A stretch of DNA of 41,151 bases. It comes from Theionarchaea archaeon. Its GTDB lineage: Archaea > Methanobacteriota_B > Thermococci > Methanofastidiosales > SZ-28-30. The position numbers and the translations under genes were made by a program. Shown here piece by piece: positions 5 through 28,654 of this stretch; the first letter of the stretch is position 1, and each line of letters starts with the position of its first letter. The stretch covers positions 1-41,151 of the forward strand of contig JACVGW010000015.1 in the NCBI GenBank assembly GCA_018992565.1, read 5' to 3'. The notes beneath the pieces are model-generated. The model worked only from the letters and a program-made list of their open reading frames with translations. It was not told the DNA's origin and did not search any database.

Positions 5-1129
5 ATGGTTTATCTCCTGGACCGGGGATTTTCATACAGTGTCATTGGGCTGGCCCTGGCAGTGAATGGAGGTCTAATGGCTGTGCTGGAAGTCCCCACG
101 GGTGCACTGGCAGATGCTATCAGTCGCAAGTTTTCCATAATATCAGGACTGGTGGGATATGGCCTGGTGCTGCTTGCTATTCCTTCTATTACTGGTCCAT
201 CTACTCTGGTTCTCGTATTTGCATTATGGGCGCTCCCTATGACACTTCTATCAGGGGCAGGAGAAGCCTGGGTGGTAGACAATTTGAAAGCTGAAAACCG
301 TGAGGATTTGATCAAGGAGTTCTTTGCCAAGGATATTTCTATACAAAACATGGGCACGATTTTTGCGGGATTGATAGCAGGAGTGGTGGTTCGATTTCTC
401 GGCATGGACGCACTGTGGTACCTGCAGGGTTTCATCGTGTTCATATCCATTTCAGTACTGGCACTGCAGAAAGAGCACTTCGAAAGGAAGAAAGTGCGGG
501 TTGTAGAGAGTATCATTGAGACCTGCAACAATATTCGCGATGGAGCCAGGTTCACCATGAGGGAGAGAAACGTGTTCTTTATCATGGCTGCAGTCTTTTT
601 CGTATCCGTGAGCAGTCAGATCATGACAGTCTGCTCCAAACCTTTCCTGGAAATCATGGGTGTTGCCAGGGAGTATTTTGGATATCTATCGGCAGTGGGT
701 GCTGCACTCTGTGTGGTAATGCCTTTTCTCGCGAAGTATGCAGCGGAACTTCTCAAGAGAGAACAGTACTACCTTTCACTGCATGCTCTTGGATCTGGGC
801 TGGTATTGGTCCTGGTGCTCCTGGTAAGAACGCCCGGGATGGCAGGGATCATTTTTGTATTCATGATTCTTCGTTACACCACATATGACCCGGTTCTTGA
901 ACCCTTCTTTCAGGGGTTCCTTCCACCAAAGCTGCGGGCTACCGTGGCTTCCCTGCGGAATATGGTATTATCAATGGCTGTCCTTCTGGGCGATTGCCTG
1001 ATTTCTGCATTCGCAGATATGGCAGGTCCTCAGCTGATGCTTGCTGCAGGTGGGCTCTTCTTTCTCCCTTCAGTCCTCCTATTCTGGATGGTGAAGGGCT
1101 CTCCACCCGCGTCATCTCAGTCAGGGTGA
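5..1129 (+). CDS. MFS transporter (probably 5'-truncated by window edge)
   Basis: Many hydrophobic helices; 'EVPTGALADAISRK' MFS motif-A-like loop and 'SGAGEAW' motif; reading frame is open to the window start. Confidence 0.85.
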   Translation: MVYLLDRGFSYSVIGLALAVNGGLMAVLEVPTGALADAISRKFSIISGLVGYGLVLLAIPSITGPSTLVLVFALWALPMTLLSGAGEAWVVDNLKAENREDLIKEFFAKDISIQNMGTIFAGLIAGVVVRFLGMDALWYLQGFIVFISISVLALQKEHFERKKVRVVESIIETCNNIRDGARFTMRERNVFFIMAAVFFVSVSSQIMTVCSKPFLEIMGVAREYFGYLSAVGAALCVVMPFLAKYAAELLKREQYYLSLHALGSGLVLVLVLLVRTPGMAGIIFVFMILRYTTYDPVLEPFFQGFLPPKLRATVASLRNMVLSMAVLLGDCLISAFADMAGPQLMLAAGGLFFLPSVLLFWMVKGSPPASSQSG

Positions 1130-1293
1130 ATGGTTGTTTTCCTACAGGACGTGAGGAAACTGCCTGTGGAATGATGTGCTCTTGGGTGATCAATCCACTG
1201 TGAACAGTATGCAAAAATTAAGATTGAAAAACGGCTGCAGGCAAAGAAACAAGAATAGAAAAGTTAAAAAAACAAAACCAAGCTCTTCTCATC

Positions 1294-1389
1294 CTAATAG
1301 GGACTGGGGCAGGCCATCTTAACGTCGGAGTCTGTCACTGCTGTGAATGCATCTCCCAGTTCCTTGTCACTAGATCTGTCTACTTCCAT
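1294..1389 (-). CDS. Putative RiPP precursor peptide P1, 31 aa MEVDRSSDKELGDAFTAVTDSDVKMACPSPY
   Basis: Hand-translated; ATG preceded by AAGGTGA RBS and TTTTTATA box (1420-1427); homologous to three neighbouring peptides; T-rich tract downstream on minus strand. Confidence 0.8.
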   Translation of the reverse strand: MEVDRSSDKELGDAFTAVTDSDVKMACPSPY

Positions 1390-1490
1390 TGTATCACCTT
1401 TCCAATTTCTCTTTACCACTATAAAAACCTATCGTTCGCGCGTATGCCATACAGTGGGGGTCAGCGCCTGACATGTCACAGCCATGTCAA

Positions 1491-1586
1491 CTAGAGCCTG
1501 CACCCTGCTGACGAGTCAATGGTGTCTGCCACAATTGTGAATGCTTCTCTCATTTCTGGTGAAAGAAGTATATCGATCTCTTCCAT
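1491..1586 (-). CDS. Putative RiPP precursor peptide P2, 31 aa MEEIDILLSPEMREAFTIVADTIDSSAGCRL
   Basis: Hand-translated; GAGGTGA RBS, TTTTTAAA box (1619-1626) 32 nt upstream of ATG; leader nearly identical to P3. Confidence 0.85.
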   Translation of the reverse strand: MEEIDILLSPEMREAFTIVADTIDSSAGCRL

Positions 1587-1800
1587 AATATCACCTCTGC
1601 ACTTCTTTGATTTCTGAATTTAAAAATCTTTCTATTTGATGATACCATACAGACAGATACCTGGTTAGAACTACTATCAAAAAACACAAATATCACGATA
1701 AAACTTCATACGGAAGAATCAACTAGTCCCTTGGAATGACATCCGTATTGGATGACCCGCAAAAACCATTCCATCTATTCTTGATGAGACAGAGATGGTA

Positions 1801-1848
1801 AAGGGAAAAAACAAAAGGGGATACAGATTTTGAAGTGTCTGAGACACT
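1801..1848 (-). terminator. Possible terminator of P3 (inverted repeat AGTGTCT-G-AGACACT followed by oligo-T tract on minus strand)
   Basis: Inverted repeat at 1834-1848; minus strand then reads CCCCTTTTGTTTTTTCCCTT, typical of archaeal U-rich terminators. Confidence 0.4.
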
Positions 1849-1862
1849 GACTTCTGCAGACC

Positions 1863-1967
1863 CTATGTGCAAGTGGGTGGACACTTGATTGGTGGACTAA
1901 TAGAATCTGACAGAATTGCCAAGGCATCTTTCATCTCCGGTGAAAGAAGCATATCGATCTCTTCCAC
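1863..1967 (-). CDS. Putative RiPP precursor peptide P3, 34 aa MEEIDMLLSPEMKDALAILSDSISPPIKCPPTCT
   Basis: Hand-translated; GTG start with GAGGTGA RBS, TTTTTAAA box (2000-2007) 32 nt upstream; immediately downstream of SPASM enzyme. Confidence 0.85.
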   Translation of the reverse strand: MEEIDMLLSPEMKDALAILSDSISPPIKCPPTCT

Positions 1968-2034
1968 AACATCACCTCTACTCCCCTTTCTTTTTAGAGT
2001 TTAAAAATGTTGGTGCTCATGACTCCTTCAAATG

Positions 2035-3402
2035 TCAACAATAGTGAATATGATATGGCCCAGTATCTTTTGCCCCTTCCAAAATGAGATACTTGTGCCA
2101 CCATTTGCAGAATTCGCACATGGGATCAATTGCAGTCATATCTCCATACGAGAAATGTGCTGTGGCAGCACATCCCGCCCCACATATGTTCCTCCAGTTA
2201 CATGTCCTGCATTCAGGGATTGTATCTACTCGTGTGCAGACTTTTTTCCTGATTTCGAGAAATCTCGTTCCTTCCCGGATGGACTGTATATCCTCTTCTG
2301 TGACATTTCCAATAATTGCATCTGCCCCATCAAAGAGCTGACAGGGATAGACATTTCCAGCTGAATCAATCCTCAATTCTTGTCCCATATTGCAGATACG
2401 AACTTTTAATCCCACTGCAGGTGCTGCTTTGTCCTCGATTTCTATGACCTCCAGGGTTCCTTTCAGGTCTTTTCTCGCTCTGTAGACTTTCTTCTGGAAC
2501 TGGATTGCTTCTTCAAGACTCAGACCCAGAGTATTCCATATCGGGACTGCCCTCCCCTGATGGTACACTTTTGAGAAAATGACTTCATTGATACCCTTAC
2601 CAAGACAGAAGTCAATCATTGTATCCACTTCTTCAACATTCAGTCTGCTTGCTGTAAAGGAAATGCGCATATTCTTCTTCAATCCCTGATCTAGAAGATT
2701 ATCAATGCCCTGTATTGTCCTCTTGAATGCACCCTTTCCCCGTATGCTGTCATGGACTTCTTCCTGCGTGCTATCCAGGGAGATCTGCAGAGTCATATCC
2801 TGCTGACGATACCCGGCCAGAAGAGCTGCTGTATCCTCATCAATGAGTGTGCCGTTGGTAGCTATTGTCGTCTTGAGGTTGTTCTCCAGGGAATACTCCA
2901 GGAGCTCATCCCATCCCTTCCTCATCAGTGGTTCTCCGCCGCTGATGTAGATGGACCATCCTTTGACTGCCACCAGATAGTCAATGCACTCTTTGATTTT
3001 TTCCAGAGATATCTCTTCCCTGCAGGCCCGGCCTGCATTCACATCACAGTGGATACAATGCAGGTTGCAGCGCGACGTGATCTCGAAGTACAGATTCGTC
3101 AAGGGAGGTAGTGATGGAACATTCACAGACAACCCCTCAAAATGAGGCGAATCAAAAGCAATGATAAGACTCTTTCTCAGGTAGCGAACAATGGTGAGAA
3201 AAGTATCAAAAGAAACCTCTGACTTCACCTGCTCATAAATGTGCTCCAAGGTACACCTACCATTGCACAGCTGAAGAATTCTATATCCCATCTCATCCAA
3301 CATGCACCACGATGGAATATGAGGGTTGAGGATGAAATTCATGCCATTCTCCTTGAACAGCAGCGCACCCTCAATTTGGCACGGTTTTTTGCCTATATCC
3401 AC
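2035..3402 (-). CDS. Radical SAM/SPASM peptide maturase with N-terminal RRE(PqqD)-like domain
   Basis: CNLHCIHC, SGGEP, SPASM cysteines (CNMG...GNVYPC...CRTCNWRNICGAGC...DPMC); N-terminal 'LDEMGYRILQLCNGRCTLEHI' resembles RRE helices. Start re-placed at GTG 3402 (AAGGTG RBS); ORF track extends to 3609. Confidence 0.9.
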   Translation of the reverse strand: MDIGKKPCQIEGALLFKENGMNFILNPHIPSWCMLDEMGYRILQLCNGRCTLEHIYEQVKSEVSFDTFLTIVRYLRKSLIIAFDSPHFEGLSVNVPSLPPLTNLYFEITSRCNLHCIHCDVNAGRACREEISLEKIKECIDYLVAVKGWSIYISGGEPLMRKGWDELLEYSLENNLKTTIATNGTLIDEDTAALLAGYRQQDMTLQISLDSTQEEVHDSIRGKGAFKRTIQGIDNLLDQGLKKNMRISFTASRLNVEEVDTMIDFCLGKGINEVIFSKVYHQGRAVPIWNTLGLSLEEAIQFQKKVYRARKDLKGTLEVIEIEDKAAPAVGLKVRICNMGQELRIDSAGNVYPCQLFDGADAIIGNVTEEDIQSIREGTRFLEIRKKVCTRVDTIPECRTCNWRNICGAGCAATAHFSYGDMTAIDPMCEFCKWWHKYLILEGAKDTGPYHIHYC

Positions 3403-3413
3403 TCTTACACCTT

Positions 3414-3491
3414 CTAGCACGTGAATGCTAGTGGTACGACACTGGAAATCGCGTCGAACGCAGATTTCATAAGGACTATGTCTTCGTCCAT
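3414..3491 (-). CDS. Putative RiPP precursor peptide P4, 25 aa MDEDIVLMKSAFDAISSVVPLAFTC
   Basis: Hand-translated; GAGGTGA RBS, TTTATATA box (3526-3533) with purine-rich BRE; stop 11 nt before the SPASM start; shares MxxAF...C pattern with P1-P3. Confidence 0.8.
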   Translation of the reverse strand: MDEDIVLMKSAFDAISSVVPLAFTC

Positions 3492-3701
3492 TTTTCTCAC
3501 CTCTTTCCCCAGTGTCACGCTGCCATATATAAAGCTTTCTCTTCCAATCTTCCTGACATGTTAATGCGGCAAGAATGACACCAAAAGAAACAAAAGGTTT
3601 CTCACTCAAATCTGGACTGCATCTGAAGTCATTGAGAAGAATTCCTGCAGTCAGAGCCCCGGAGAAGGGTTCAGGGTGACTATTGAGGTCTGTACATACA
3701 T

Positions 3702-7513: not shown

Positions 7514-8896
7514 TTATAGCAGCACATCCTCAATGGAGGCTGCCAGATACAGGATAGCTTCAAGAATCTCCTTATAGCTCATCCAATCAGTCTCCAAGGA
7601 AGGTCTTCCTGATAGCGACTCAGAATTCTCCCACCACCTTCCCAGAGGACGCACTCCCAGCTGGTCTCCTTCCTTCCACACGGGAGAGTCAGGATAACAG
7701 GTTAAGGCTGTAACATTGACCATCTCCAGTTCCATTTTCCGCACAAAGTCAATCGTATCATCAATTTCCTTCAAGGTCTGTTTGGGCAGTCCGACAATAA
7801 GCCCTGTCCTGATGGTCATGCCAGCGTCGCGGGTCAGCCGTAAGGCAGTCTCGATGTCTTCCAATTTTATGTGTTTTCTGCATGCATCGAGAACCTTCTG
7901 AGACGCACATTCCACTCCGTAGAACATGGAATAGCAGCCTGCTTCACGCATCTTTGAAATGAGCTCAGGGGTTACGTAGTCAGGTCTGGTAATACATGTC
8001 CACTCCACATCAATACCTCTCTCCAGTATCTCATCGCAGATTTGAAAAGCCCGATCCATGTCATAGGTGAAGAATTCATCATGGAATCCAATGAATTTTC
8101 TCCCCTGAGATCGTGCCATTTCCATTTCATCTACAGTGCTCTGTGCTGACCTGCCTCTCCATGTATTACAATACATGTGCGAATTGTGACAGAAAATGCA
8201 TTTATATCTGCATCCCCTGGAGGAAATTATCCAGTAAACATCTCCTGGATATCCTGTCTTCTTCATGTATTCCAAGAGCTTGAGCGTAGCAATTCGCTCC
8301 TTTGCATATCCTACCGGGGGTATGAGGTCATACGCAGGGAGCGGTAGTTCATCCAGGCAGTCAGGGAACTCTCGCGGATTGTGGATGACAGATCCATTCG
8401 CCCGAAAAGAGACGTTTGGTATGCCCTGAAGATCACCAAGAGATACCAGCTGTCGTACCAGTTGAATCGCACAAAACTCGGGCTCAACGTGGATGACTGC
8501 GTCAATAGGCCATGTGGACAGCATGATTTCCGATGCCAGGTCGTCCCATGTTCCTTCCACTGCGACTCTCATGTGGGGATGTACCTCTTTGAGAGCCTGT
8601 ATGAGCCGATGTGTGAAGTTGTAGTTGGTATAGTAACCGTAGACTATTGCCACATCATATTGATCTTTGCTCACGGCAACCCGGCAGGAATCAATAACAG
8701 ACTCGGGGGGCCGCAGGGGGAAGGGAGCATTAATACTGGAACGCGGATCTGTGGCCATCTCTTCTGCGGACACGTATCCATTCAAATCGATTGCATCAAA
8801 AGGAATGCCAGCCTGGCGCAGCAGTGATGCTACGTACATGAACGGAAAGGGTGGACACTTGGGTCGAGTTGGCGTGTGGAGCAGAAGCACCTTCAT
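7514..8896 (-). CDS. B12-binding domain radical SAM enzyme
   Basis: N-terminal Rossmann-like B12 domain; 'SSRGCRYKCIFC', 'DEFFT', 'WTCITR', 'GVEC'. Confidence 0.9.
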   Translation of the reverse strand: MKVLLLHTPTRPKCPPFPFMYVASLLRQAGIPFDAIDLNGYVSAEEMATDPRSSINAPFPLRPPESVIDSCRVAVSKDQYDVAIVYGYYTNYNFTHRLIQALKEVHPHMRVAVEGTWDDLASEIMLSTWPIDAVIHVEPEFCAIQLVRQLVSLGDLQGIPNVSFRANGSVIHNPREFPDCLDELPLPAYDLIPPVGYAKERIATLKLLEYMKKTGYPGDVYWIISSRGCRYKCIFCHNSHMYCNTWRGRSAQSTVDEMEMARSQGRKFIGFHDEFFTYDMDRAFQICDEILERGIDVEWTCITRPDYVTPELISKMREAGCYSMFYGVECASQKVLDACRKHIKLEDIETALRLTRDAGMTIRTGLIVGLPKQTLKEIDDTIDFVRKMELEMVNVTALTCYPDSPVWKEGDQLGVRPLGRWWENSESLSGRPSLETDWMSYKEILEAILYLAASIEDVLL

Positions 8897-10023
8897 GATT
8901 TCACCTCCTGTGTTCTTGATGGAAAGACTGGGTCCATTCTCTCAAATGTGAGTGAGTATCTGCAGGGGCCTCCACAGACAGTCACATATTTACATGACTC
9001 GCACGTCCGTGTGCACGGCTCCTGCGTATAGGTAAGAAGGCTTTGATATATATTTTTTTCGGAACACTGCTCAAGGTTGGAGAGAATGTAGGGAGGGCTT
9101 CTCAAGCAGGTACATGGAGTAATATCAAAGGTGGGCAGAACCACAATCTTGAACCTTCCTCCAATGCAGCCAAAAAACCGATTTTGTTCTGTTGTATCTG
9201 GTTTCTTATGTTCAAAGAAACATTCCGGGAAGCAGAAAACATCTTCGACAAAGATGGGGGTCTTGTACTGGTTTTGCAGAGAAGAAATCTCTGATGAAAG
9301 CGCATAGTAATCTGGTCTGCTCAATCTGAGTTCAGATGGGGCATTCCCTGTTATTCTTACATTATGATATTCTACACCTGACACACCAATGCGACATACT
9401 CTTTCCATAATATCTGTCACCTGGTGCTTGTTATGCTGGGTCAACGTGCACAGTGTGGTAGTGTCGACACCGTGGGATACCAGAAGATGCAGTGCGTCAA
9501 TGACCTTTCTCAAAGACTCGGGCGAGGCATTAATCCCTTCAAAAAGTTCATCTGCAGCGTCCAGGCTGACAGATGCATCAATCCCCAAGTCTGCCAGAAG
9601 TCGAGCGTGCTCTTCTGTGAGGAGAGTCGCATTGGTAACCAGGTCAAGATCCCACGAATACTGACTCATATACTCCAGAAGATGCGTGATGTCACTCCGT
9701 ATTAAAGGCTCCCCACCGCTTATGAAAATCTTCTTGAAGTGCATACGGTGCAGCTTGTCCACAGCATCAGCCAGTTGATCAAAAGTAGGATGTCCTGCAG
9801 GTGAGACTGCATAGCAGTATTCACATCGGAGGTTGCATCGTGAGGTAACCTCAAACCACACCTTAAATGGTAGGAGTATGTCTGCATGTTCTGTTTGAAG
9901 TTCTTCTCCCTGGTACGTACAGGGGAGGACAAACTGATTTCTGTAGATGTGACCCTCTTCAGTCTCGAACCACCAGCATCCATAGTCTTTGACTTTGCGG
10001 ATTCTCGGCATCATATCTCTCAA
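8893..10023 (-). CDS. Radical SAM/SPASM-domain enzyme
   Basis: CNLRCEYC, SGGEP, C-terminal 'CIGGR...ITPC...CESCKYVTVCGGPC'. True start may be the ATG at 10014 or 10011. Confidence 0.9.
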   Translation of the reverse strand: MRDMMPRIRKVKDYGCWWFETEEGHIYRNQFVLPCTYQGEELQTEHADILLPFKVWFEVTSRCNLRCEYCYAVSPAGHPTFDQLADAVDKLHRMHFKKIFISGGEPLIRSDITHLLEYMSQYSWDLDLVTNATLLTEEHARLLADLGIDASVSLDAADELFEGINASPESLRKVIDALHLLVSHGVDTTTLCTLTQHNKHQVTDIMERVCRIGVSGVEYHNVRITGNAPSELRLSRPDYYALSSEISSLQNQYKTPIFVEDVFCFPECFFEHKKPDTTEQNRFFGCIGGRFKIVVLPTFDITPCTCLRSPPYILSNLEQCSEKNIYQSLLTYTQEPCTRTCESCKYVTVCGGPCRYSLTFERMDPVFPSRTQEVKS

Positions 10024-10199: not shown

Positions 10200-11603
10200 T
10201 TGAAAGTGGTACTCTGTAATCCGCCCCAGCCCGTGTCGTTTTTTCCAAAGATCCCCCCCTTGGGGATTGCCTACCTGGGTGGCTTGCTTCGAGAAAACGG
10301 GCACGATGTGGTGTTGTACGATCTTAACATACGCCTTGGCAGTCCTATCACTCACCAGGACATCACAGACGTTGTAAAGGACATTGCAGATGATGAACCT
10401 GATATCCTGGGTGTGTCCTGCTGGGCCATGTGCATGCCCTTTGTTTCAGAATTTGTTCAGCAGTATAAACTGGAAAATGATGGGCTGGTTTTACTGGGGG
10501 GGCCGTATCCGTCGCTGGCTCCTGTTGAGACTGTCCGTGGAATTCCTGCTGACTGCTGCGTGGTGGGGGAAGGTGAACTTCCCTTGCTGGATATTGCCAG
10601 AGCTCCCCAGAACCTGGAATCTACTGAAAATGTCTGGATTCACAAAGAAGGTACTCTCATACAGAATCCGCGCCGTTCTGACTTCTATCCTCTGGATGAG
10701 CTTCCCTACCCTGCACTGGACCTGCTCCCTCCTATCGAAGCATACCAGAACATGCAGGATGACTACTGGTACATGGAAGCGCCCACATATGAGTTCCCCA
10801 TCATGGGGAGCAGGGGCTGCCCTTACAGGTGTGCTTTCTGCTCCACCCGGAAGATATGGACATCCCACAGGCGAAGAGACCCGGAGAGCATCGTAAAAGA
10901 AATCAAGCAGCTTGCCAGAGAGTATGGAGATATTTTCATTGATTTCCAGGATGATATGTTCACTCTCAGCAAGGCCTGGGTTTCATCCATTTGCAGGAAC
11001 CTGCGCTCTGAAGGCATAACTGCAGCATGGAGCTGCTGCACCAGAGTGGATTGTGTGGATGATGACATCCTCTCCACAATGAAAGCTGCAGGATGCACCA
11101 ACATTGACCTGGGAATCGAATCAATCAATGATCACGTCCTTGAGTATATCCGCAAAGGGTACACTGCAGCAGATGTCAGGAGAGGGCTTTCTGCCATTAC
11201 CGACCACGGGATCCAGGCCGAGACGACGTATATTGTGAACCTCCCTGTTGAAACGAAGGAGGATATTATGAGGACTATAGATTTTGGAGAAGAAAGCCTG
11301 AAAGAGGGAGTATCTGAAGTGACGTTTTATTTACTGACACCATACCCGGGAATTGACCTTCTAGAAGAGCACACAATTGAGTTAATGCCATCTCCTTACA
11401 GGGACAACCTGCTCAAGTACGTAGCAGGATTTTCCAGGAATCCTGAGCGTTATGATGATCCCTTCTGGCTCCCTGAAGCTTTTACTATTGTCAATCCGTC
11501 CTTGACTCAAGATGACTTCTGGGAAGTGTTCGAAAGAATACATGCTATTAACGCAACATTTCCACCATATCCATTGTCTTTCTACAAGGGTGAGAGAAAA
11601 TGA
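10200..11603 (+). CDS. B12-binding domain radical SAM enzyme
   Basis: 'PPLGIAYL', 'GGPYPS', 'VGEGE', 'SRGCPYRCAFC', 'DDMFT'; GAGGTGA RBS before TTG. Confidence 0.92.
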   Translation: MKVVLCNPPQPVSFFPKIPPLGIAYLGGLLRENGHDVVLYDLNIRLGSPITHQDITDVVKDIADDEPDILGVSCWAMCMPFVSEFVQQYKLENDGLVLLGGPYPSLAPVETVRGIPADCCVVGEGELPLLDIARAPQNLESTENVWIHKEGTLIQNPRRSDFYPLDELPYPALDLLPPIEAYQNMQDDYWYMEAPTYEFPIMGSRGCPYRCAFCSTRKIWTSHRRRDPESIVKEIKQLAREYGDIFIDFQDDMFTLSKAWVSSICRNLRSEGITAAWSCCTRVDCVDDDILSTMKAAGCTNIDLGIESINDHVLEYIRKGYTAADVRRGLSAITDHGIQAETTYIVNLPVETKEDIMRTIDFGEESLKEGVSEVTFYLLTPYPGIDLLEEHTIELMPSPYRDNLLKYVAGFSRNPERYDDPFWLPEAFTIVNPSLTQDDFWEVFERIHAINATFPPYPLSFYKGERK

Positions 11604-12994
11604 CCCTGAAAACGGTTCTCTGTAATCCGGCACAACCTGTGTACTACGTCCCCCATATACCTCCTCTGGGAATGTCATACCTTGCAGGCTACCTCAGAGA
11701 GCATGAGCAGGAGGTCACTCTGCTGGATTTCGAGCATGAAGCAACTTCCATGGGGAAGAGGACTATGAACCGGCTGGTGGACATGGCCTGCAACCTGGAG
11801 CCTGACATCATTGGATTTACTGCCTGGGCGGATTGTATGCCCTTCATTTCCGAATTCTTAACACGATTCAGGCAGCGTGCTCCTGACTGCATCACAGTGC
11901 TGGGAGGACCTCTCCCCAGTGTGGCTCCTGCAGAGACACTGGAGCTTATGCCTGCAGTAGACTACGTGGTGGTGGGAGAAGGTGAACATGTTCTTCTCCA
12001 GTTAATACAGCAATTAGAACAAGGGAAAGCCCCCGATAGTGAAGGAGTGTGCTACAAGAAGGGAGGGTCACTCTTCTACAGGCCACAGACGTCCCATGTG
12101 GACATTGAGACACTTCCCTTTCCTGCTTATGACTTGCTTCCACCTGTGAGAGATTACACCAGAGAAGGGGAGCCTACAGTGCTGACCATGGCTGCAAGCC
12201 GTGGCTGCATATATAACTGCACCTTCTGCTCATCCAAGATGATGTGGGGTCTATACCGGTGCAGAAGCGTCAACAATGTCATTGATGAAGTGGCCTTCCA
12301 TGTAAGAGAATATGGTGATATCTTCATTGATTTTCTTGATGACATCTTCACAGCCTATCCTCAGTGGGTGAAGACCTTCTGCCGCAGGCTACAGGAACGT
12401 AACCTGGATCTCAAGTGGAGCTGCATAACACGTGTTGATAGAGTGAACAGAGAGCTCCTGAAGAACCTGAAAGAGGCAGGATGCAGAATCATCTTCTATG
12501 GAGTGGATTCCGGGACACAGAGAATTCTGAACCAGATTAATAAAGGATATAAGGTGGAGGATGTCCTACGTGCCATAGAAACGAGCCTGGAATTTGGATT
12601 TTCCATTGAAAACACCTTTATAATAAACTTCCCAACAGAAACAAAACAGGAGATGATGGAGACATTGAAGCTGGCCAGAACCCTCCTGGATATGGGGGTA
12701 GAAGAAGCAGTCGTTTTCATATTGACGCCGCATCCTAATCTCAGCATCCTGGATTCTTCCAAGGAGTACTTGCCGACACCTTACAGGAACGGATTCTTAG
12801 AGTATATCAGCTATGTGACAGATACACCCCAGCAGTATGATTCTCCGTACTTCTTTCCCGAAGCATACACTCCCCGTAATCCTTCTGTAACAGAAGAAGA
12901 ATTCCAGGAGCTCTTTGAAATATGTACAGAGATTAACAAGGAATCTGGATTCCCTCTGACCTTGATGATACGGGAGAATTCTACCATTCCTTGA
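11600..12994 (+). CDS. B12-binding domain radical SAM enzyme (paralog of upstream gene)
   Basis: 'PPLGMSYL', 'GGPLPS', 'VGEGE', 'SRGCIYNCTFC'; ATGA overlap with previous gene. Confidence 0.92.
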   Translation: MTLKTVLCNPAQPVYYVPHIPPLGMSYLAGYLREHEQEVTLLDFEHEATSMGKRTMNRLVDMACNLEPDIIGFTAWADCMPFISEFLTRFRQRAPDCITVLGGPLPSVAPAETLELMPAVDYVVVGEGEHVLLQLIQQLEQGKAPDSEGVCYKKGGSLFYRPQTSHVDIETLPFPAYDLLPPVRDYTREGEPTVLTMAASRGCIYNCTFCSSKMMWGLYRCRSVNNVIDEVAFHVREYGDIFIDFLDDIFTAYPQWVKTFCRRLQERNLDLKWSCITRVDRVNRELLKNLKEAGCRIIFYGVDSGTQRILNQINKGYKVEDVLRAIETSLEFGFSIENTFIINFPTETKQEMMETLKLARTLLDMGVEEAVVFILTPHPNLSILDSSKEYLPTPYRNGFLEYISYVTDTPQQYDSPYFFPEAYTPRNPSVTEEEFQELFEICTEINKESGFPLTLMIRENSTIP

Positions 12995-22376: not shown

Positions 22377-23663
22377 CTAGGGGATGGTAATCCCTCTCTT
22401 TATGAAGAATGGATCACACAGTATATCAAGCCATAACCGTGCCTGCTGCTTAATGGAAAAGCCATCTGTTTCGCAAACAGGGGCAAAAAAGTGGTATGTG
22501 GAGAACTGCTTGTTGACAACGGTAATTCCATAGGCTTCTGGGTTCTCGTAGATGTCTGAGCCGGGATATGGATTCAGATTATGGATGATGACTCGATCAA
22601 AATTCAGGCGTTTGATGAACTCTAATGTCTGCCTGGCAGTATCTTCCGTTTCTGAAGGAAGTCCAATGATAAAAGACCCGATAGCCTTGATGCCCACCTT
22701 CTTACAGGCTTGTACTACATGCTCAACCTGGTGGAGGTCAATTCCCTTGCCAACTCTATCCAGGATAGATTGAACACCGCTCTCCACCCCAAGGCACACA
22801 GCATAGCAGCCCGCCTTCTTCATCTTCTTCAGAAGGGGCTCAGACAGCCTGTCCACCCGCGATTCGCAAATCCACCTCATTCCGGTCTGGTCCTCTATGA
22901 GGAGATCCGAAATCTGTTCTGTGCGCTTCATGTCAAAAGTGAAAAGTTCATCCACAATCTGTAATTCTTCAACTCCATACTGGTACCGCAGCATTTTCAT
23001 TTCTTCAAAGACATTCGCTGCACTCCTTCCCCTCCACTTCCGTCTGAAAAATGTGTTCATTGAACAGAATGCACAGTTGTAAGGACAGCCGCGACTTGTA
23101 GACATGACTGCTGCATTTTTGGGAATTGACTGCTGCATGAGTTCTCTCGTGGGAAATAAGTCGTAGGCAGGAAACGGCAGTGTATCCAGATCATCAATGA
23201 GTGGTCTATCCGGATTTCTGACAACTGCTCCATTCTTCCTGCAGGTGATGCCCCTGGTGGAAGTGAAGGTTCCGTCATAGTATGACTGGACAAGTTCCAG
23301 GAAGGTGTGCTCTCCCTCTCCCCTGACCACTGCATCAACGTAGTCCAGCTCAGCAGTCTCAGTATCAAGGTACGTGGGCATTAATCCCCCCATGACAGTG
23401 AAAACTGAGATGTTATCCTTTAGTGCTTTCAAGATTTGAAGGGAACCTGGATATGTTGCAGCGATACTTGATACCCCTACAATATCAGGGCCCATGGAGG
23501 AAACACTGTTCACTATTTCGTCAACAGTAGTCTTTCGCGCTGTAGCGTCGACAATTCTCACCTCTATTCCATGTTCTCGCAGGACACCTGCCACATATCC
23601 AAGGCCGATATTAACTCGAGGACCCCATTCTGAAACATAAGGTGGGTTTATTAACACAATCAT
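22377..23663 (-). CDS. B12-binding domain radical SAM enzyme
   Basis: 'IGLGYVA', 'GGLMPT', 'RGEGE', 'SRGCPYNCAFC', 'GVESG'. Confidence 0.92.
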   Translation of the reverse strand: MIVLINPPYVSEWGPRVNIGLGYVAGVLREHGIEVRIVDATARKTTVDEIVNSVSSMGPDIVGVSSIAATYPGSLQILKALKDNISVFTVMGGLMPTYLDTETAELDYVDAVVRGEGEHTFLELVQSYYDGTFTSTRGITCRKNGAVVRNPDRPLIDDLDTLPFPAYDLFPTRELMQQSIPKNAAVMSTSRGCPYNCAFCSMNTFFRRKWRGRSAANVFEEMKMLRYQYGVEELQIVDELFTFDMKRTEQISDLLIEDQTGMRWICESRVDRLSEPLLKKMKKAGCYAVCLGVESGVQSILDRVGKGIDLHQVEHVVQACKKVGIKAIGSFIIGLPSETEDTARQTLEFIKRLNFDRVIIHNLNPYPGSDIYENPEAYGITVVNKQFSTYHFFAPVCETDGFSIKQQARLWLDILCDPFFIKRGITIP

Positions 23664-24716: not shown

Positions 24717-26024
24717 ATGAGAGTTCTTCTCATACAGCCTCCGAGGCCCTATTCTTCCCATGACTCTGACTGGTTGAATTCCACCCCCATTGGACTTGCC
24801 TATATTGCTGCAGTTCTGCGGGAGGCGGGACATACCATTGATGTTCTGGACATGCCCTCTCAGGGGCTGACCCCAGAATCTGTGGAAGGTGTCATGAGAA
24901 GATTCCGGCCCGAGGTAGTGGGGTGTTCCGTGGCTACGGTGGGATACCTACCTGCACTGAGAGCGCTCACTGTCTGTAAGCGCTGCGATCCCACTGTCAC
25001 GACTATTCTGGGCGGTATCCACGCCACTTTTGAAGATACTGATGCAGCATCACAGGAGTCTGTGGACTATGTGGTGAGAAACGAGGGAGAACACACAATA
25101 GTACAGTTACTTGACTGCATTGAGAAGCAGCACTCCCCCCAGGCTCTCAGGGGGATAACATATCATCATTCTACTCTCGTGAGAGCTGAGGACGCTCCCC
25201 CTGTTTCTGACCTGGATGCACTTCCTTTCCCTGCGCACGATCTTTTCCCTCTGAGCCACTACCCCGAGTATGGCATGGTTGCAGTAAATACCAGCAGGGG
25301 GTGTGCCCACAAGTGCATCTTCTGTTCTACACGTTCCATGTTCAGGACATACAGGTTCAGATCTGCAGAAAGCGTTGTGGAAGAATTGAAGTATGTGCAT
25401 GAGCTGTATCCCAAGAAAAAAATACTGGTTGGAGATGACACCTTCACTCTCAACAGGAAACGGGCAATGAAAATCTGCTCATTGATACGGGAGGAAGGCC
25501 TGGACATTGACTGGAACTGCGAAACCAGGGTAGATACCATTGACGACGAGATGCTCAGTGAACTGAAGAAGGCGGGATGCTATGCGGTCTACTATGGGCT
25601 GGAAACAGGATCGCAGGAGAACCTGGACCGTGTAAGAAAAGGAACAACCGTCCAGAAAGGTGTGGAAGCTGTTGGAAAGGCATTTTCAGCAGGTATCGAC
25701 CAGACGCTTGTGGGATTCATACTTGGATTTCCCTGGGAAAAAGAAGCAGATATTGAAAAATCCATTGCACTCGTTCTACATTTGAGAAAGAAGTTCGGGC
25801 TTAATCTCATAGCATATGGCAAGTTTCCTATCCCCTTTCCTGGAACTGAACTGGTAGACATGATAGAGCAAGGAGACATTACTGTTTACCAGGGCATGTA
25901 CCAGAACTGGGAGGACTACCAGGGTTACAAGCCTATCATGGTGACAGAGCACATAGCCAGGAACAGGCTCCACGAATTATACCTGGAATTCTGTGCTGCC
26001 TGTCTTTCACGGCCCCGGAAGTGA
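24717..26024 (+). CDS. B12-binding domain radical SAM enzyme
   Basis: 'PIGLAYIAA', 'GGIHAT', 'NEGE', 'SRGCAHKCIFC', 'DDTFT'. Confidence 0.92.
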   Translation: MRVLLIQPPRPYSSHDSDWLNSTPIGLAYIAAVLREAGHTIDVLDMPSQGLTPESVEGVMRRFRPEVVGCSVATVGYLPALRALTVCKRCDPTVTTILGGIHATFEDTDAASQESVDYVVRNEGEHTIVQLLDCIEKQHSPQALRGITYHHSTLVRAEDAPPVSDLDALPFPAHDLFPLSHYPEYGMVAVNTSRGCAHKCIFCSTRSMFRTYRFRSAESVVEELKYVHELYPKKKILVGDDTFTLNRKRAMKICSLIREEGLDIDWNCETRVDTIDDEMLSELKKAGCYAVYYGLETGSQENLDRVRKGTTVQKGVEAVGKAFSAGIDQTLVGFILGFPWEKEADIEKSIALVLHLRKKFGLNLIAYGKFPIPFPGTELVDMIEQGDITVYQGMYQNWEDYQGYKPIMVTEHIARNRLHELYLEFCAACLSRPRK

Positions 26025-26028
26025 CCGC

Positions 26029-27357
26029 ATGAGAATCCTCCTTGTGGTTCCTCCTCTTGATGCTCCTCCGAAACCCCTGGTGTTTGATCCTGTCCCAGCT
26101 CAGGCCCCCTTCCCTCCACTGGGAGTCCTGTACATATCAGCTGCTCTTGCCCATGAGGGACATGATGTCACGGTTTTTGACGGGACATTCCGGAAGGATC
26201 TGGACTCATTTTGCAGAGGCAGGCAGATTGATATGGCAGGAGTGTATTCCACTGTGCTGCATTACTCTGCTCTGCTTGAAACCTGCAGAACCCTCAAGGC
26301 GCACTCACTGCCTGTGGTGATTGGCGGTCCTCTCCCCTCATGCTATCCTCAGCTGATTACCTGTGATGACGTTGATTTTCTGGTGGCTGGAGAAGGTGAA
26401 GGTGCTATCACCATGCTGGCAGAACACGTTGAGGCTTCCGGTGAGTATACTATACCTCCTGGTTCTACCATTCCAAACCTCGTGTGGAAGGACCATGGGA
26501 TTCATCACAGTCCAACCACAAGAGTTGAAGATGTTGACTCGCTCCCCTACCCGGACAGAGACAACTTCATTTTTGAAGACTATATGGCTGTCTGGAAGAA
26601 GCACTTCGGATTTACCTGCACATCACTGCTGTCCTCGAGAGGATGCCCTTATACATGCAATTTCTGCGATAAGAGCGTCTTTGGCACTCTCTACAGGGCC
26701 CGGTCAGTAGAAAACATCATGCCTGAGATCTTCTACTTGAAAGAGAGAGGAATTGACAAAATATGGTTTGCTGACGATTTATTTACCCTGGATAAAAAGC
26801 GCGTTCTCTCTTTGTGTGCAGAACTGCAGAAAGAGCATCTCGATCTGGAATGGTACTGTGAAAGCCGTGTAGATACTCTAGATAAAGAGATGCTGGAGAC
26901 TATGAAGAAGGCAGGATGCAGCTGGATTGGGTTTGGTGTAGAATCTGGAAATCCTGACATTCTCGCCTACATCAGAAAAGGACACGATCTGGAGGCAGTG
27001 GAAAAGGCCTTCAGAATGGCCAGGGAGGCAGGAATCAAGCGATGTGCTTACTTCATCCTGGGATTCCCCCGTGACACTCCTCAGACTGTGGAAGACACAA
27101 TTCAGTTTGCCATGTCAATCGACCCTGACAGCGTGGAGTTCTCGCTTCCTATTCCAATTCCAGGAACCTCATTATCACACGATGTTGAGACAATAACCCA
27201 GGGGTTTGACAGGTTTGACAACAGGATGTCCCTGGTTTTTGAGCATCCACATTTCACCAGAACAGAGGCAGAAACTATGGTGGAGCGAGCGTACATTCGC
27301 TTCACTGAATTCAAGAGAAAAGCTGATCCTGACTTCGCCCTTGAGGATCAATGGTGA
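26029..27357 (+). CDS. B12-binding domain radical SAM enzyme
   Basis: 'PPLGVLYI', 'GEGE', 'SRGCPYTCNFC', 'DDLFT', 'GVESG'; start placed at ATG 26029 (MRILLVVPP). Confidence 0.92.
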   Translation: MRILLVVPPLDAPPKPLVFDPVPAQAPFPPLGVLYISAALAHEGHDVTVFDGTFRKDLDSFCRGRQIDMAGVYSTVLHYSALLETCRTLKAHSLPVVIGGPLPSCYPQLITCDDVDFLVAGEGEGAITMLAEHVEASGEYTIPPGSTIPNLVWKDHGIHHSPTTRVEDVDSLPYPDRDNFIFEDYMAVWKKHFGFTCTSLLSSRGCPYTCNFCDKSVFGTLYRARSVENIMPEIFYLKERGIDKIWFADDLFTLDKKRVLSLCAELQKEHLDLEWYCESRVDTLDKEMLETMKKAGCSWIGFGVESGNPDILAYIRKGHDLEAVEKAFRMAREAGIKRCAYFILGFPRDTPQTVEDTIQFAMSIDPDSVEFSLPIPIPGTSLSHDVETITQGFDRFDNRMSLVFEHPHFTRTEAETMVERAYIRFTEFKRKADPDFALEDQW

Positions 27358-27361
27358 TGGA

Positions 27362-28654
27362 GTGAGAATATCACTGGTTTTTCCACCCTCAAAAGTGGGA
27401 GGATGCTTCAGGGGAGATCCTGAATTGTGGCCCCCTCTGGGAGTACTGTACCTGGCCGCAGTGCTGGAAGAGGAGGGACACACAGTCGACGTCATTGACA
27501 GTACAATTCTCACCAGGGCCCAGTATGAAACCAGGATCAACTCCATTCATGCGGATATGGTGGGCATTTCTGCGTCTTTTGGTCAGATAGAGGCCACTCT
27601 AAACCTTGCCAAAATGATGAAAGAGTGTTGTATACCTGTTGTGGTGGGGGGCCCGGGTCCCAGCAGTATGGGCCCTGAATTGTTTCTCACCTGGTGTGAC
27701 TATGTGGTGAAGGGGGAAGGCGAAGAGACCTTCTCAGATATTGCTCTCCACATAGAAGCAGGAGAGATGCCCCCTGTAAAGGGGAGCTACACACAGGTCA
27801 ATGGTAGCCCGGTATCTCCGGGGACCCGGCCACCAATCAAGAATATTGACGCTGTGCCCTTCCCTGCACGAGAGAAAGTTACCATCACTGACTATGTGAA
27901 GCACTGGAAATCAACCTATCCAAAGGCAGTCACGTCTATCCTTTCTTCGAGGGGATGCCCTTTTCATTGCATATTCTGCTCAAAATCGGTATTCGGCACA
28001 AAATTCAGGGCACGGTCTGCAGACAACCTTGCTCAGGAACTGCAGGTCATTCAGGAACTTGGATTTGACAGAGTCTGGTTTGTAGATGATCTTTTCGTTT
28101 ATAATAGAAAAAGAGTGAAGGAAATCTGCGAAACGATACGAAGAGAGAAAATTGATATAGAATGGGCATGCCAGGCGCGGGTAGAACTCATGGACAGAGA
28201 ACTGCTCTCGCTTATGAAGTCTTCGGGTCTCGTCTGTATCGCGTTTGGAGTAGAATCAGGAAGCCAGAGACTTGTTGACTGGTACAACAAGGGGTTCACC
28301 CTTGACCAGTGCAGAGCTGTCTTTTCCATGTGCCACCACATGAAGATTGCAGCTCATGCGTATTTCATAGTGGGTGCTCCTGTTGAAACACCAGATGATA
28401 TTGAGCAAACCAAAGGGTTCATACGAGAGATCAACCCAGCATACGCAATCTTCTCTGTTCTGACTCCCTATCCCGGGACTCCACTGTACAGCCAGTACAA
28501 CCCTTCAGGTGACCTGGACGAACTCGATGATGCCAGGAAGTCAGCCATTGCTGGACAGGAACATGCAGAGAAAAAGAGAGAGGAAATGGAAGAATTCTAC
28601 GCTGCATTCAAAGCAGAAAGAGGGGAAAAACCACTACTTCTTGGTGAAATTTAA
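27362..28654 (+). CDS. B12-binding domain radical SAM enzyme
   Basis: 'PPLGVLYL', 'GEGE', 'SRGCPFHCIFC', 'GVESGS'; start placed at GTG 27362 with GGTGA RBS. Confidence 0.92.
   Translation: MRISLVFPPSKVGGCFRGDPELWPPLGVLYLAAVLEEEGHTVDVIDSTILTRAQYETRINSIHADMVGISASFGQIEATLNLAKMMKECCIPVVVGGPGPSSMGPELFLTWCDYVVKGEGEETFSDIALHIEAGEMPPVKGSYTQVNGSPVSPGTRPPIKNIDAVPFPAREKVTITDYVKHWKSTYPKAVTSILSSRGCPFHCIFCSKSVFGTKFRARSADNLAQELQVIQELGFDRVWFVDDLFVYNRKRVKEICETIRREKIDIEWACQARVELMDRELLSLMKSSGLVCIAFGVESGSQRLVDWYNKGFTLDQCRAVFSMCHHMKIAAHAYFIVGAPVETPDDIEQTKGFIREINPAYAIFSVLTPYPGTPLYSQYNPSGDLDELDDARKSAIAGQEHAEKKREEMEEFYAAFKAERGEKPLLLGEI

Follow-up and report, generated by a model that had tools for sequence, protein, structure and literature searches.

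Cysteine-containing putative precursor peptides around the gene for a radical SAM/SPASM enzyme with an RRE-like domain form a candidate RiPP cluster in a Theionarchaea archaeon

Results

Genes and signals at the locus

The DNA studied here is a stretch of 41,151 nucleotides (nt) from a Theionarchaea archaeon, hereafter called the window. It is contig C49 of a 2.8-Mb assembly that is 88% complete (genome 2,803,216 bases), and the contig starts at window position 1. On the minus strand, four very short open reading frames (ORFs), P1 to P4, surround a gene for an enzyme with an N-terminal RRE-like domain, a radical S-adenosylmethionine (SAM) core and a SPASM domain; RRE stands for the recognition element of RiPPs, peptides that are synthesized ribosomally and then receive post-translational modifications. 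Read 5' to 3' on that strand, the order is P4, enzyme, P3, P2 and P1, with intergenic gaps of 11 nt (P4-enzyme), 67 nt (enzyme-P3), 276 nt (P3-P2) and 101 nt (P2-P1) (Table 1). The four ORFs had been proposed, from the letters of the DNA alone, as precursors of a new archaeal RiPP family. Their positions and translations proved correct, P3 starting with GTG, and so did the proposed spacing, in which 11 (P1) or 12 (P2, P3 and P4) residues separate an (M/L)xxA(F/L) motif from a Cys. The original prediction had also called all four absent from the ORF track. This stands for P3 and P4, which have no exact public match, but P1 and P2 already exist as predicted, unnamed public proteins, on nine contigs each.

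Table 1. Coordinates of the genes and signals of the cluster and of the adjoining transporter gene.
Feature	Position	Strand	Evidence and remarks
MFS (major facilitator superfamily) transporter gene	5..1129	+	Pfam MFS_1 3.1e-22; truncated by contig start; convergent with cluster; cluster membership putative
Oligo-T tract 3' of P1 stop	1243..1279	-	putative archaeal terminator
P1 precursor, 31 amino acids (aa), MEVDRSSDKELGDAFTAVTDSDVKMACPSPY, ACPSPY tail subtype	1294..1389	-	ATG start; external-only profile E 1.2e-9
TATA-like box TTTTTATA, 30 nt 5' of P1 start	1420..1427	-	AGGTGA 1394-1399; composite-signal scan
P2 precursor, 31 aa, MEEIDILLSPEMREAFTIVADTIDSSAGCRL, CRL tail subtype	1491..1586	-	ATG start; external-only profile E 5.3e-12
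TATA-like box TTTTTAAA, 32 nt 5' of P2 start	1619..1626	-	AGGTGA 1591-1596; composite-signal scan
Oligo-T tract 3' of P3 stop	1800..1816	-	putative terminator
P3 precursor, 34 aa, MEEIDMLLSPEMKDALAILSDSISPPIKCPPTCT, CPPTCT/CPAT tail subtype	1863..1967	-	GTG start; external-only profile E 1.4e-19
TATA-like box TTTTTAAA, 32 nt 5' of P3 start	2000..2007	-	AGGTGA 1972-1977; composite-signal scan
Radical SAM maturase gene, 455 aa	2035..3402	-	GTG 3402 start; Pfam, motifs, AlphaFold2, Foldseek
P4 candidate precursor, 25 aa, MDEDIVLMKSAFDAISSVVPLAFTC, C-terminal Cys	3414..3491	-	ATG start; composite TATA and Shine-Dalgarno signal
TATA-like box TTTATATA, 34 nt 5' of P4 start	3526..3533	-	AGGTGA 3497-3502; putative promoter of a P4-enzyme operon

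All four ORFs share the same expression signals: the Shine-Dalgarno (SD) sequence AGGTGA lies 4-5 nt before the start codon and a TATA-like octamer 30-34 nt before it. Such octamers are read as promoters by the archaeal TATA consensus. In the window, AGGTGA-N3-9-RTG was counted 16 times, compared with 8.07 +/- 2.86 times in shuffles, and 4 of the 16 precede P1 to P4. The full composite signal (TTTWWAWA, 14-26 nt, AGGTGA, 3-8 nt, start codon) has just 38 occurrences in the whole genome, counting both strands, and four of them belong to P1-P4, all inside 2.2 kb. Moreover, the TTTTTAAA box is invariant in a three-way DNA alignment of the regions upstream of P2, P3 and a related peptide gene on the metagenome contig L023 described below. 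Since the composite signal is rare, four copies of it fall at this locus, and a peptide profile built from outside sequences alone recovers P1-P3, the finding of P1-P4 goes beyond chance. We infer that P3, P2 and P1 are separately promoted mini-genes. A scan for bacterial-type promoters and terminators, a type of scan not applicable to archaea, gave nothing above shuffles.

A conserved peptide family with one invariant Cys

A profile of the four peptides, run against 103,471 stop-to-stop frames of the genome, returned only P1-P4 themselves. With a profile made exclusively of external relatives, the same frames yielded P3, P2 and P1 at the E values given in Table 1, and the next match had an E of 0.23. 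When 1.84 billion representative proteins were searched exhaustively with a profile, 10 of them passed E<=0.001. Eight are peptides of 31-54 aa; the remaining two, long proteins of 1073 and 1879 aa, matched through 10-12 short stretches and were dropped as probable repeat or low-complexity matches. A larger alignment, with a 54-aa member at its head, served for a word-indexed search, and the 11 proteins returned at E<=1 were without exception family peptides of 31-68 aa, namely nine external sequences plus P1 and P2 themselves. A search that used a 45-aa stop-to-stop frame as the query gave no candidates. Counting the mature part only, there are nine distinct relatives outside this genome in the public metagenome data.

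No family member was found by the peptide profile in 132 other genomes of the phylum; weak matches in two of them (G018, E 0.006; G023, E 0.0092) cover model positions 14-32 only, are contained in open frames of 214 and 205 aa and were taken as spurious. A degenerate DNA pattern of the leader found nothing in 185,579 species genomes, a set from which the own genome may be excluded. As far as these searches reach, the family was found only in Theionarchaea/Methanofastidiosia-type sequences.

The alignment of the peptides confirmed the predicted layout of a conserved leader, a variable stretch and an invariant Cys. After the acidic leader, EE[IL]DMLL[ST]PEMKDA...DS, come 5-7 residues that vary, then the one invariant Cys and lastly a short tail. 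A 10-sequence alignment shows no variation in the columns E3, E11, A15 and C29 and hardly any in D5, D14 and D21. Outside the leader, nothing but the Cys is invariant, and the residue at -2 from it is always aliphatic (I/V/A/M). P3, P0122 and P0129 alone have two Cys. Three types of tail can be told apart, which are ...[KR]CPPSCT, ...CPAT or ...ACCPAT (P3-like), ...RCRLYL or ...RCRLYF (P2-like) and ...ACPSPY (P1-like). The relatives P0125, P0126, P0130, P0131-P0133 and P0135 end in RCRLYL or RCRLYF and belong with P2, and P0128 is an ortholog of P1 that differs at 6 of 31 positions. The predicted library of variable cores therefore holds for the 5-7 residues before the Cys, but the tails are conserved within the three subtypes, so that the library is narrower than had been supposed.

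Neither Pfam (E<=1) nor NCBIfam (E<=0.1) gave a single family for any of the four peptides, in line with the original remark that their leaders were not recognized from any described class. Likewise, no description of the precursor family was found in the accessible portions of the literature on Theionarchaea radical SAM enzymes and archaeal RiPPs.

The possibility that the ORFs are untranslated, and that their conservation is that of RNA or DNA elements, has to be weighed at this point. The 23 public sequencing runs listed with the locus include no RNA run, which leaves some room for it. On the other hand, when P3 was compared with the L023 peptide over 29 codons, 11 codons were identical, nine differed synonymously (including an exchange of the Ser codon TCT for AGC) and nine differed non-synonymously, mostly by conservative L/I/M exchanges. 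This pattern of synonymous and conservative substitution argues that P3 is translated. The SD sequence stands at the correct spacing in all four ORFs, peptide-level profiles detect divergent members at 29-70% identity, and Rfam gave no match at a family gathering score between positions 1100 and 4300, the two weak ones (E 0.2 and 0.68) lying inside the enzyme gene and being dismissed. We consider an untranslated element extremely improbable; at the level of sequence, P1-P3 are confirmed as real genes conserved as protein.

The radical SAM/SPASM enzyme and its probable RRE-like domain

The predicted make-up of the enzyme was upheld by Pfam and sequence motifs for the radical SAM core and the SPASM domain, and the AlphaFold2 model and Foldseek make an RRE-like domain at its N-terminus probable. 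Pfam matched Radical_SAM (PF04055, 1.4e-25) and SPASM (PF13186, 7.6e-9), and a PqqD match (E 1.3e-3, 19.5 bits) remained under the gathering score of 23.4. The CX3CX2C motif of the radical SAM cluster (C112/C116/C119) and the seven-Cys motif of SPASM (C337-X11-G-X4-C354, C398X2C401X5C407X3C411, C429) are both invariant in 32 homologs. The RRE-like N-domain occupies approximately residues 1-85; here the model, whose mean predicted local distance difference test (pLDDT) score is 87.9, has four strands (7-35) and three helices (37-77) with pLDDT about 84-96. Many homologs with 30-36% identity carry PF05402.

The start of the gene needed care. A 524-aa ORF, 2035-3609, opens with TTG 3609 and is over-extended, given the MDIGKKPCQIEG-like N-termini common to the orthologs; a start at the internal ATG 3342 was rejected as well, several orthologs having Leu at that position. 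The conserved ortholog N-terminus places the start at GTG 3402, and because this is the true start, P4 does not overlap the enzyme.

Foldseek ranked CteB first (5wgg, E 1.4e-19, 468 columns, N-domain covered), followed by SkfB, SuiB and TigE and then by anSME, PqqE and ChlB. The best sequence matches in the PDB were SkfB (4e-20) and CteB (7.7e-14). NCBIfam scores, in bits against the cutoff of each model, were 153.4/265 for MftC, 151.9/625 for StsB (NF045574), 112.5/340 for PapB (NF047865), 103.9/850 for AlbA (NF012164) and 79.9/425 for the SCIFF maturase (TIGR03974), so that no cutoff was reached. By these sequence comparisons, the enzyme is a peptide-maturase-type RRE-radical SAM/SPASM protein of no named family. 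A structure prediction of its complex with P3, three 4Fe-4S clusters and SAM gave no answer (score 0.02) and is evidence neither way.

Linkage of peptides and enzyme

The original prediction had proposed a search for conserved peptide ORFs beside orthologous enzymes in relatives, and such a case was found. On L023, a 1,692-nt metagenome contig, a P3-type peptide lies directly downstream of an enzyme ortholog with 68% identity, starting 72 nt after the enzyme stop if TTG 1602 is the start codon and 69 nt after it if ATG 1599 is. The same TATA box and SD sequence precede this peptide, which is cut by the contig end. L023 was the one short locus that a metagenome scan for orthologous DNA yielded, and a scan of genome contigs by the enzyme found nothing. 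As a separate observation, positions 1-230 of L023 form a G+C-richer 5' end, and the first ~25 residues of its enzyme are unlike those of all other orthologs, which suggests that recombination or chimeric assembly took place right at the position expected for P4.

Further pairs emerged from public records. Peptide and enzyme records of the same source were found on contigs of identical size: 24,269 (P0126/P0137), 50,717 (P0135/P0139), 4,208 (P0127 and P0133/P0143) and 3,370 nt (P0128/P0144), with 51,156 nt representing the own-type set. P0130 (CRLYL-type) and P0136 (CPAT-type) both stand on a contig size of 10,173 nt, a pairing which suggests that the multi-precursor layout is kept. No size partner was seen for five peptide records (P0122, P0125, P0129, P0130 and P0136) and 12 enzyme records; the record lists give only the longest contig per record, so missing partners say little. 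The enzyme orthologs themselves share 84, 80, 68, 68, 68 and 57% identity with the enzyme, the next match dropping to 36%, and none was found at E<=1e-60 in the 132 other genomes of the phylum. These comparisons support the view that P1-P3 travel with the enzyme, in one direct case (L023) and four that are read from contig sizes.

Linkage of this kind might also arise if the mini-genes encoded real small proteins, such as regulators or toxin-like proteins, that are not substrates and lie near the enzyme through shared inheritance of an island. The linkage was seen among close relatives only (enzyme identity 57-84%), for which synteny may lack the time to break, and leader binding and modification are deduced from sequence. 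Against this, a leader, a variable core and an invariant residue, in multiple paralogs flanking an RRE enzyme, make up the standard signature of a RiPP system, and on another contig of the genome (C56) a paralogous enzyme is preceded, 27 nt upstream, by a mini-gene of its own that carries the same signals and whose peptide is conserved in a second species. Overall, non-substrate small proteins appear improbable.

P4, the weak member

The predicted family of four is firm for P1-P3, which the external-only profile recovers, while for P4 only a weak similarity was obtained: hhalign aligned MKSAFDAISS of P4 with MKDALAILSD of the family over 10 columns (P 0.0044, probability 7.9%). In favor of P4 are its acidic N-terminus, the rare composite signal and its end 11 nt before the enzyme start. 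In addition, M8 and C25 of P4 are 17 residues apart, the same distance as between M12 and C29 in P2 and P3. Six orthologs whose start was called 6 codons early all begin with (V/M)LEGV(R/K), which, read as DNA, shows that the 18 nt over the P4 stop and the enzyme SD sequence are conserved, and nothing more. The unusual first ~230 bases of L023 and its divergent enzyme N-terminus make that locus uninformative on P4. The paralogous enzyme of contig C56 is likewise preceded by a 31-aa mini-gene with the same signal; because of this mini-gene and its conservation in a congener, "peptide, then enzyme" appears to be a recurring layout in the genus. Taken together, P4 is rather likely to be a true precursor, and it is probably co-transcribed with the enzyme.

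Surroundings and distribution of the locus

On the P4 side, a 138-aa S-layer-like ORF lies 5' of P4, and beyond it, on the opposite strand, stand the housekeeping genes for Nop5 and fibrillarin, so that the cluster is bounded there. On the other side, the MFS gene ends 164 nt from the P1 stop. Close protein relatives are labelled Theionarchaea or Candidatus Methanofastidiosia archaeon.

These neighbors bear on another possibility, that the peptides are precursors of a redox cofactor, like PqqA or MftA, rather than of secreted products. MftC is the best NCBIfam match of the enzyme (8.4e-45), PqqE is among its fold and sequence matches, and Tyr is the last residue of P1 and also occurs in the CRLYL and CRLYF tails. 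Nevertheless, the MftC score of 153.4 is well under the cutoff of 265, the neighbors (S-layer-like, Nop5, fibrillarin, MFS) include no other cofactor-pathway genes, and the precursors, three or four in number, are divergent paralogs whose tails are of three types. To our knowledge, cofactor systems do not have several divergent paralogous precursors. We regard a cofactor as very improbable.

Near-identical copies of the locus (window 1200-3700) were present in 20 DNA runs from seven studies, comprising marine sediment, estuary, mangrove and soil/sediment metagenomes, and the population that carries it appears widespread. Contigs assembled from four runs (80% likeness) contained near-identical strains only. 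The strain differences listed in 1200-2034 fall into spacers (1456, 1772 and 1982, the last a 1-base insertion), and the peptide ORFs are untouched among the rows listed.

The rest of the window contains seven further genes for B12-binding radical SAM enzymes, at 7514-8896(-), 10200-11603(+), 11600-12994(+), 22377-23663(-), 24717-26024(+), 25993-27357(+) and 27206-28654(+). Six of the seven have a Pfam B12-binding match, and 7514-8896 matches only the NCBIfam B12-radical SAM family models. They are mingled with genes for glycosyltransferases, a PIG-L deacetylase, a SAM methyltransferase, an epimerase, a CapK/PaaK-like ligase, an O-antigen-polymerase-like protein and a FemAB-like protein, and judged by gene content the 41-kb window resembles an island for surface glycans in which radical methylase-type enzymes are unusually numerous. 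At 8893-10023(-), next to a B12-radical SAM gene and a CapK/PaaK-like ligase, lies the gene for a second radical SAM enzyme; the enzyme has no Pfam SPASM match at E<=0.001 and aligns over nearly its full length to NCBIfam SPASM-family models. The composite-signal scan of the genome placed no mini-gene with a TATA and SD signal beside it.

Paralogous enzymes and other mini-genes in the genus

At E<=1e-30, the genome has eight radical SAM/SPASM paralogs and each of two congeners has six, none of them more than 33% identical to the enzyme. Contig C56(-) of this genome (G000) carries one such gene (3391-2078) and, before it, the 31-aa mini-gene MRKTILPMKRTIVIGSVNPIVFPKGGIVWAP (3514-3419) with a TATA and AGGTGA signal. 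Its product has no Cys, and the C-terminal 22 residues are identical in the congener peptide MKKVTLRMTRTIVIGSVNPIVFPKGGIVWAP (L011 of G001; L015); it is probably a member of another undescribed precursor family. Contig C28(+) of G000 carries two adjacent mini-genes of 29-30 aa (starts 3379 and 3677) with a PEF(L/M) motif, P-rich tails and the composite signal, and a 32-aa peptide similar to this pair starts at 209 on L007 (G002), beside a radical SAM/SPASM paralog of the congener. Two further mini-genes with the composite signal were seen in G000, on contigs C71(+) (start 19789) and C144(-) (start 2750); one encodes the Cys-rich 36-aa peptide MKCEKVEKGTICSLIPSCPPFGIPSCPPSPCNCVNI and the other a Gly/Pro-rich peptide of 31 aa that ends in C.

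Discussion

The observation behind the original prediction was confirmed, and its reading as a RiPP system is well supported for P1-P3 and plausible for P4. What the sequences point to, in our judgment with fair probability, is a RiPP cluster in which a leader-guided enzyme modifies the Cys of short precursors, most likely by forming a thioether. P3, P2, P1 and probably P4 would encode precursors of 25-34 aa. The acidic leader, probably helical (M-EE[IL]DMLL[ST]PEMKDA-x4-DS), would dock on the N-terminal RRE-like domain of the enzyme, and the core would then be modified by the radical SAM cluster together with two SPASM auxiliary clusters. In the working model for such enzymes, an auxiliary cluster binds the Cys thiol, the 5'-deoxyadenosyl radical abstracts a hydrogen and a C-S bond results, as outlined in PMC9389541. 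Applied here, the thiol of the invariant Cys would sit on an auxiliary cluster, the radical would take a hydrogen from a nearby residue, and one intramolecular thioether would be formed. The acceptor probably lies upstream of the Cys, because P2 has two residues after it and P4 none. Removal of the leader, export and a biological role would be the presumptive further steps.

Alternatively, the peptides may be true substrates of a reaction other than thioether formation, such as a C-C or C-O cross-link, an epimerization, a cyclopropane-type change at the aliphatic residue -2 or an oxidation or other conversion of the Cys; in that case the invariant Cys would act only as a ligand or a handle, or would be needed for a later step. 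This would agree with the nearest folds, which include SuiB, TigE, anSME, PqqE and EpeE, with NCBIfam scores that are all below cutoff, with the constant aliphatic character of the -2 residue and with the Cys-free peptides that accompany paralogs in the genus. On the contrary, the Cys is the sole residue kept invariant outside the leader, the two best sequence matches of solved structure, SkfB and CteB, are thioether synthases, and the full SPASM domain fits the model of a thiol on an auxiliary cluster set out in PMC9389541. We therefore hold a non-thioether reaction to be possible but rather unlikely.

Several results weigh against the thioether RiPP reading and should be taken together. First of all, there is one Cys per peptide (two in P3, P0122 and P0129), compared with several in typical sactipeptides and ranthipeptides. 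Paralogous RRE-radical SAM/SPASM enzymes in the genus adjoin conserved peptides without Cys, for example of the ...GSVNPIVFPKGGIVWAP type, and other paralogs adjoin peptides whose one Cys is absent from the relatives in the genome studied here. Because these paralogs accompany peptides without a conserved Cys, homology of the enzyme alone does not imply Cys chemistry. Since all NCBIfam scores are far below cutoff, no known chemistry can be transferred to the enzyme, and among its nearest folds, which also take in oxidation enzymes, SuiB forms a C-C bond and TigE a cyclopropane, with anSME and PqqE also making no thioether. For P4, profiles built without it, including the scan of the 103,471 frames, did not recover it, and no independent homolog was seen, a length of 25 aa being too short for most gene callers. 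The cluster contains no protease gene, and its sole candidate exporter is the adjoining convergent MFS gene, which is cut by the contig end and whose membership is putative. Finally, no RNA run is among the 23 public runs listed, and four of the peptide-enzyme linkages are inferred from identical contig sizes, not from DNA.

Comparison with characterized systems helps to place the thioether RiPP reading. Sactipeptide systems (SkfB/SkfA, AlbA/SboA and StsB; Cys S to alpha-carbon) have the same combination of RRE-like domain, radical SAM core and auxiliary clusters and a short precursor with a core Cys. SkfB is the best sequence match in the PDB and the second fold, and StsB, the second NCBIfam match, aligns over residues 3-398, including the N-domain. 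However, the enzyme falls below the AlbA and StsB cutoffs, the host is archaeal, no model is related to the leader, and here one Cys lies near the C-terminus, whereas in sactipeptides several N-terminal Cys pair with later acceptors. Ranthipeptide or SCIFF systems (CteB and PapB; beta- or gamma-carbon) are alike in that CteB is the best fold, that there are two SPASM auxiliary clusters and that the Cys is C-terminal in the precursor. The enzyme is nonetheless below the PapB and SCIFF maturase cutoffs, and the one or two Cys here contrast with SCIFF and PapA precursors, which have about six in repeated motifs. MftC/MftA and PqqE/PqqA also pair a short precursor with an RRE-dependent radical SAM/SPASM enzyme, and MftC is the top NCBIfam match, although below cutoff; unlike there, the RRE is fused to the enzyme rather than separate, several divergent precursors are present and no accessory genes lie nearby.

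Two further systems are likened by description only. NxxcB/NxxcA of streptococci, which form a beta-thioether in an N-x-x-C motif, are described as having the Cys donor C-terminal to the acceptor and as tolerating varied acceptors (PMC9389541). Such tolerance would agree well with the variability of the residues that precede the invariant Cys in the present family, but these peptides have no NxxC motif, and NxxcB belongs to a bacterial operon linked to quorum sensing. CrpC of Methanococcus voltae is described as an archaeal radical SAM-SPASM enzyme with a predicted RRE that installs ranthionine links in CrpA (PMC13692751). By the same account, CrpA is a Cys-rich protein of ~29 kDa, in contrast to the peptides of 25-34 aa here.

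The architecture of the cluster is that of a textbook RRE-radical SAM/SPASM RiPP system and of a kind already known; a genome-mining survey, as summarized in PMC12144867, already counts archaeal clusters of sactipeptide and ranthipeptide type and notes that functional characterization is still limited. New here, as judged by sequence, is a precursor family that matches no model and has a single near-C-terminal Cys and three conserved tail types. Going by such accounts, radical SAM peptide clusters are predicted widely in archaea and almost no products are known. The locus is approximately minimal for such a system, with one 455-aa enzyme and substrates of 25-34 aa that share a single invariant Cys, and it is easily testable. 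Moreover, natural variants, in the form of three tail types and nine external sequences, already map the positions that tolerate change. The rare TATA and AGGTGA composite marks other unannotated mini-genes in the genome and may serve as a finder for archaeal precursor peptides.

A more far-reaching idea, which we offer tentatively and judge to be short of probable, is that the cluster represents a RiPP class restricted to Theionarchaea/Methanofastidiosia, with a Cys-centered modification not yet described on three or four differently tailed precursors. For example, a Cys at or near the C-terminus may be joined by a thioether to an unactivated aliphatic residue of the variable loop, or the Cys itself may be converted. 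If true, this would be the first small radical SAM-modified peptide natural product characterized from archaea.

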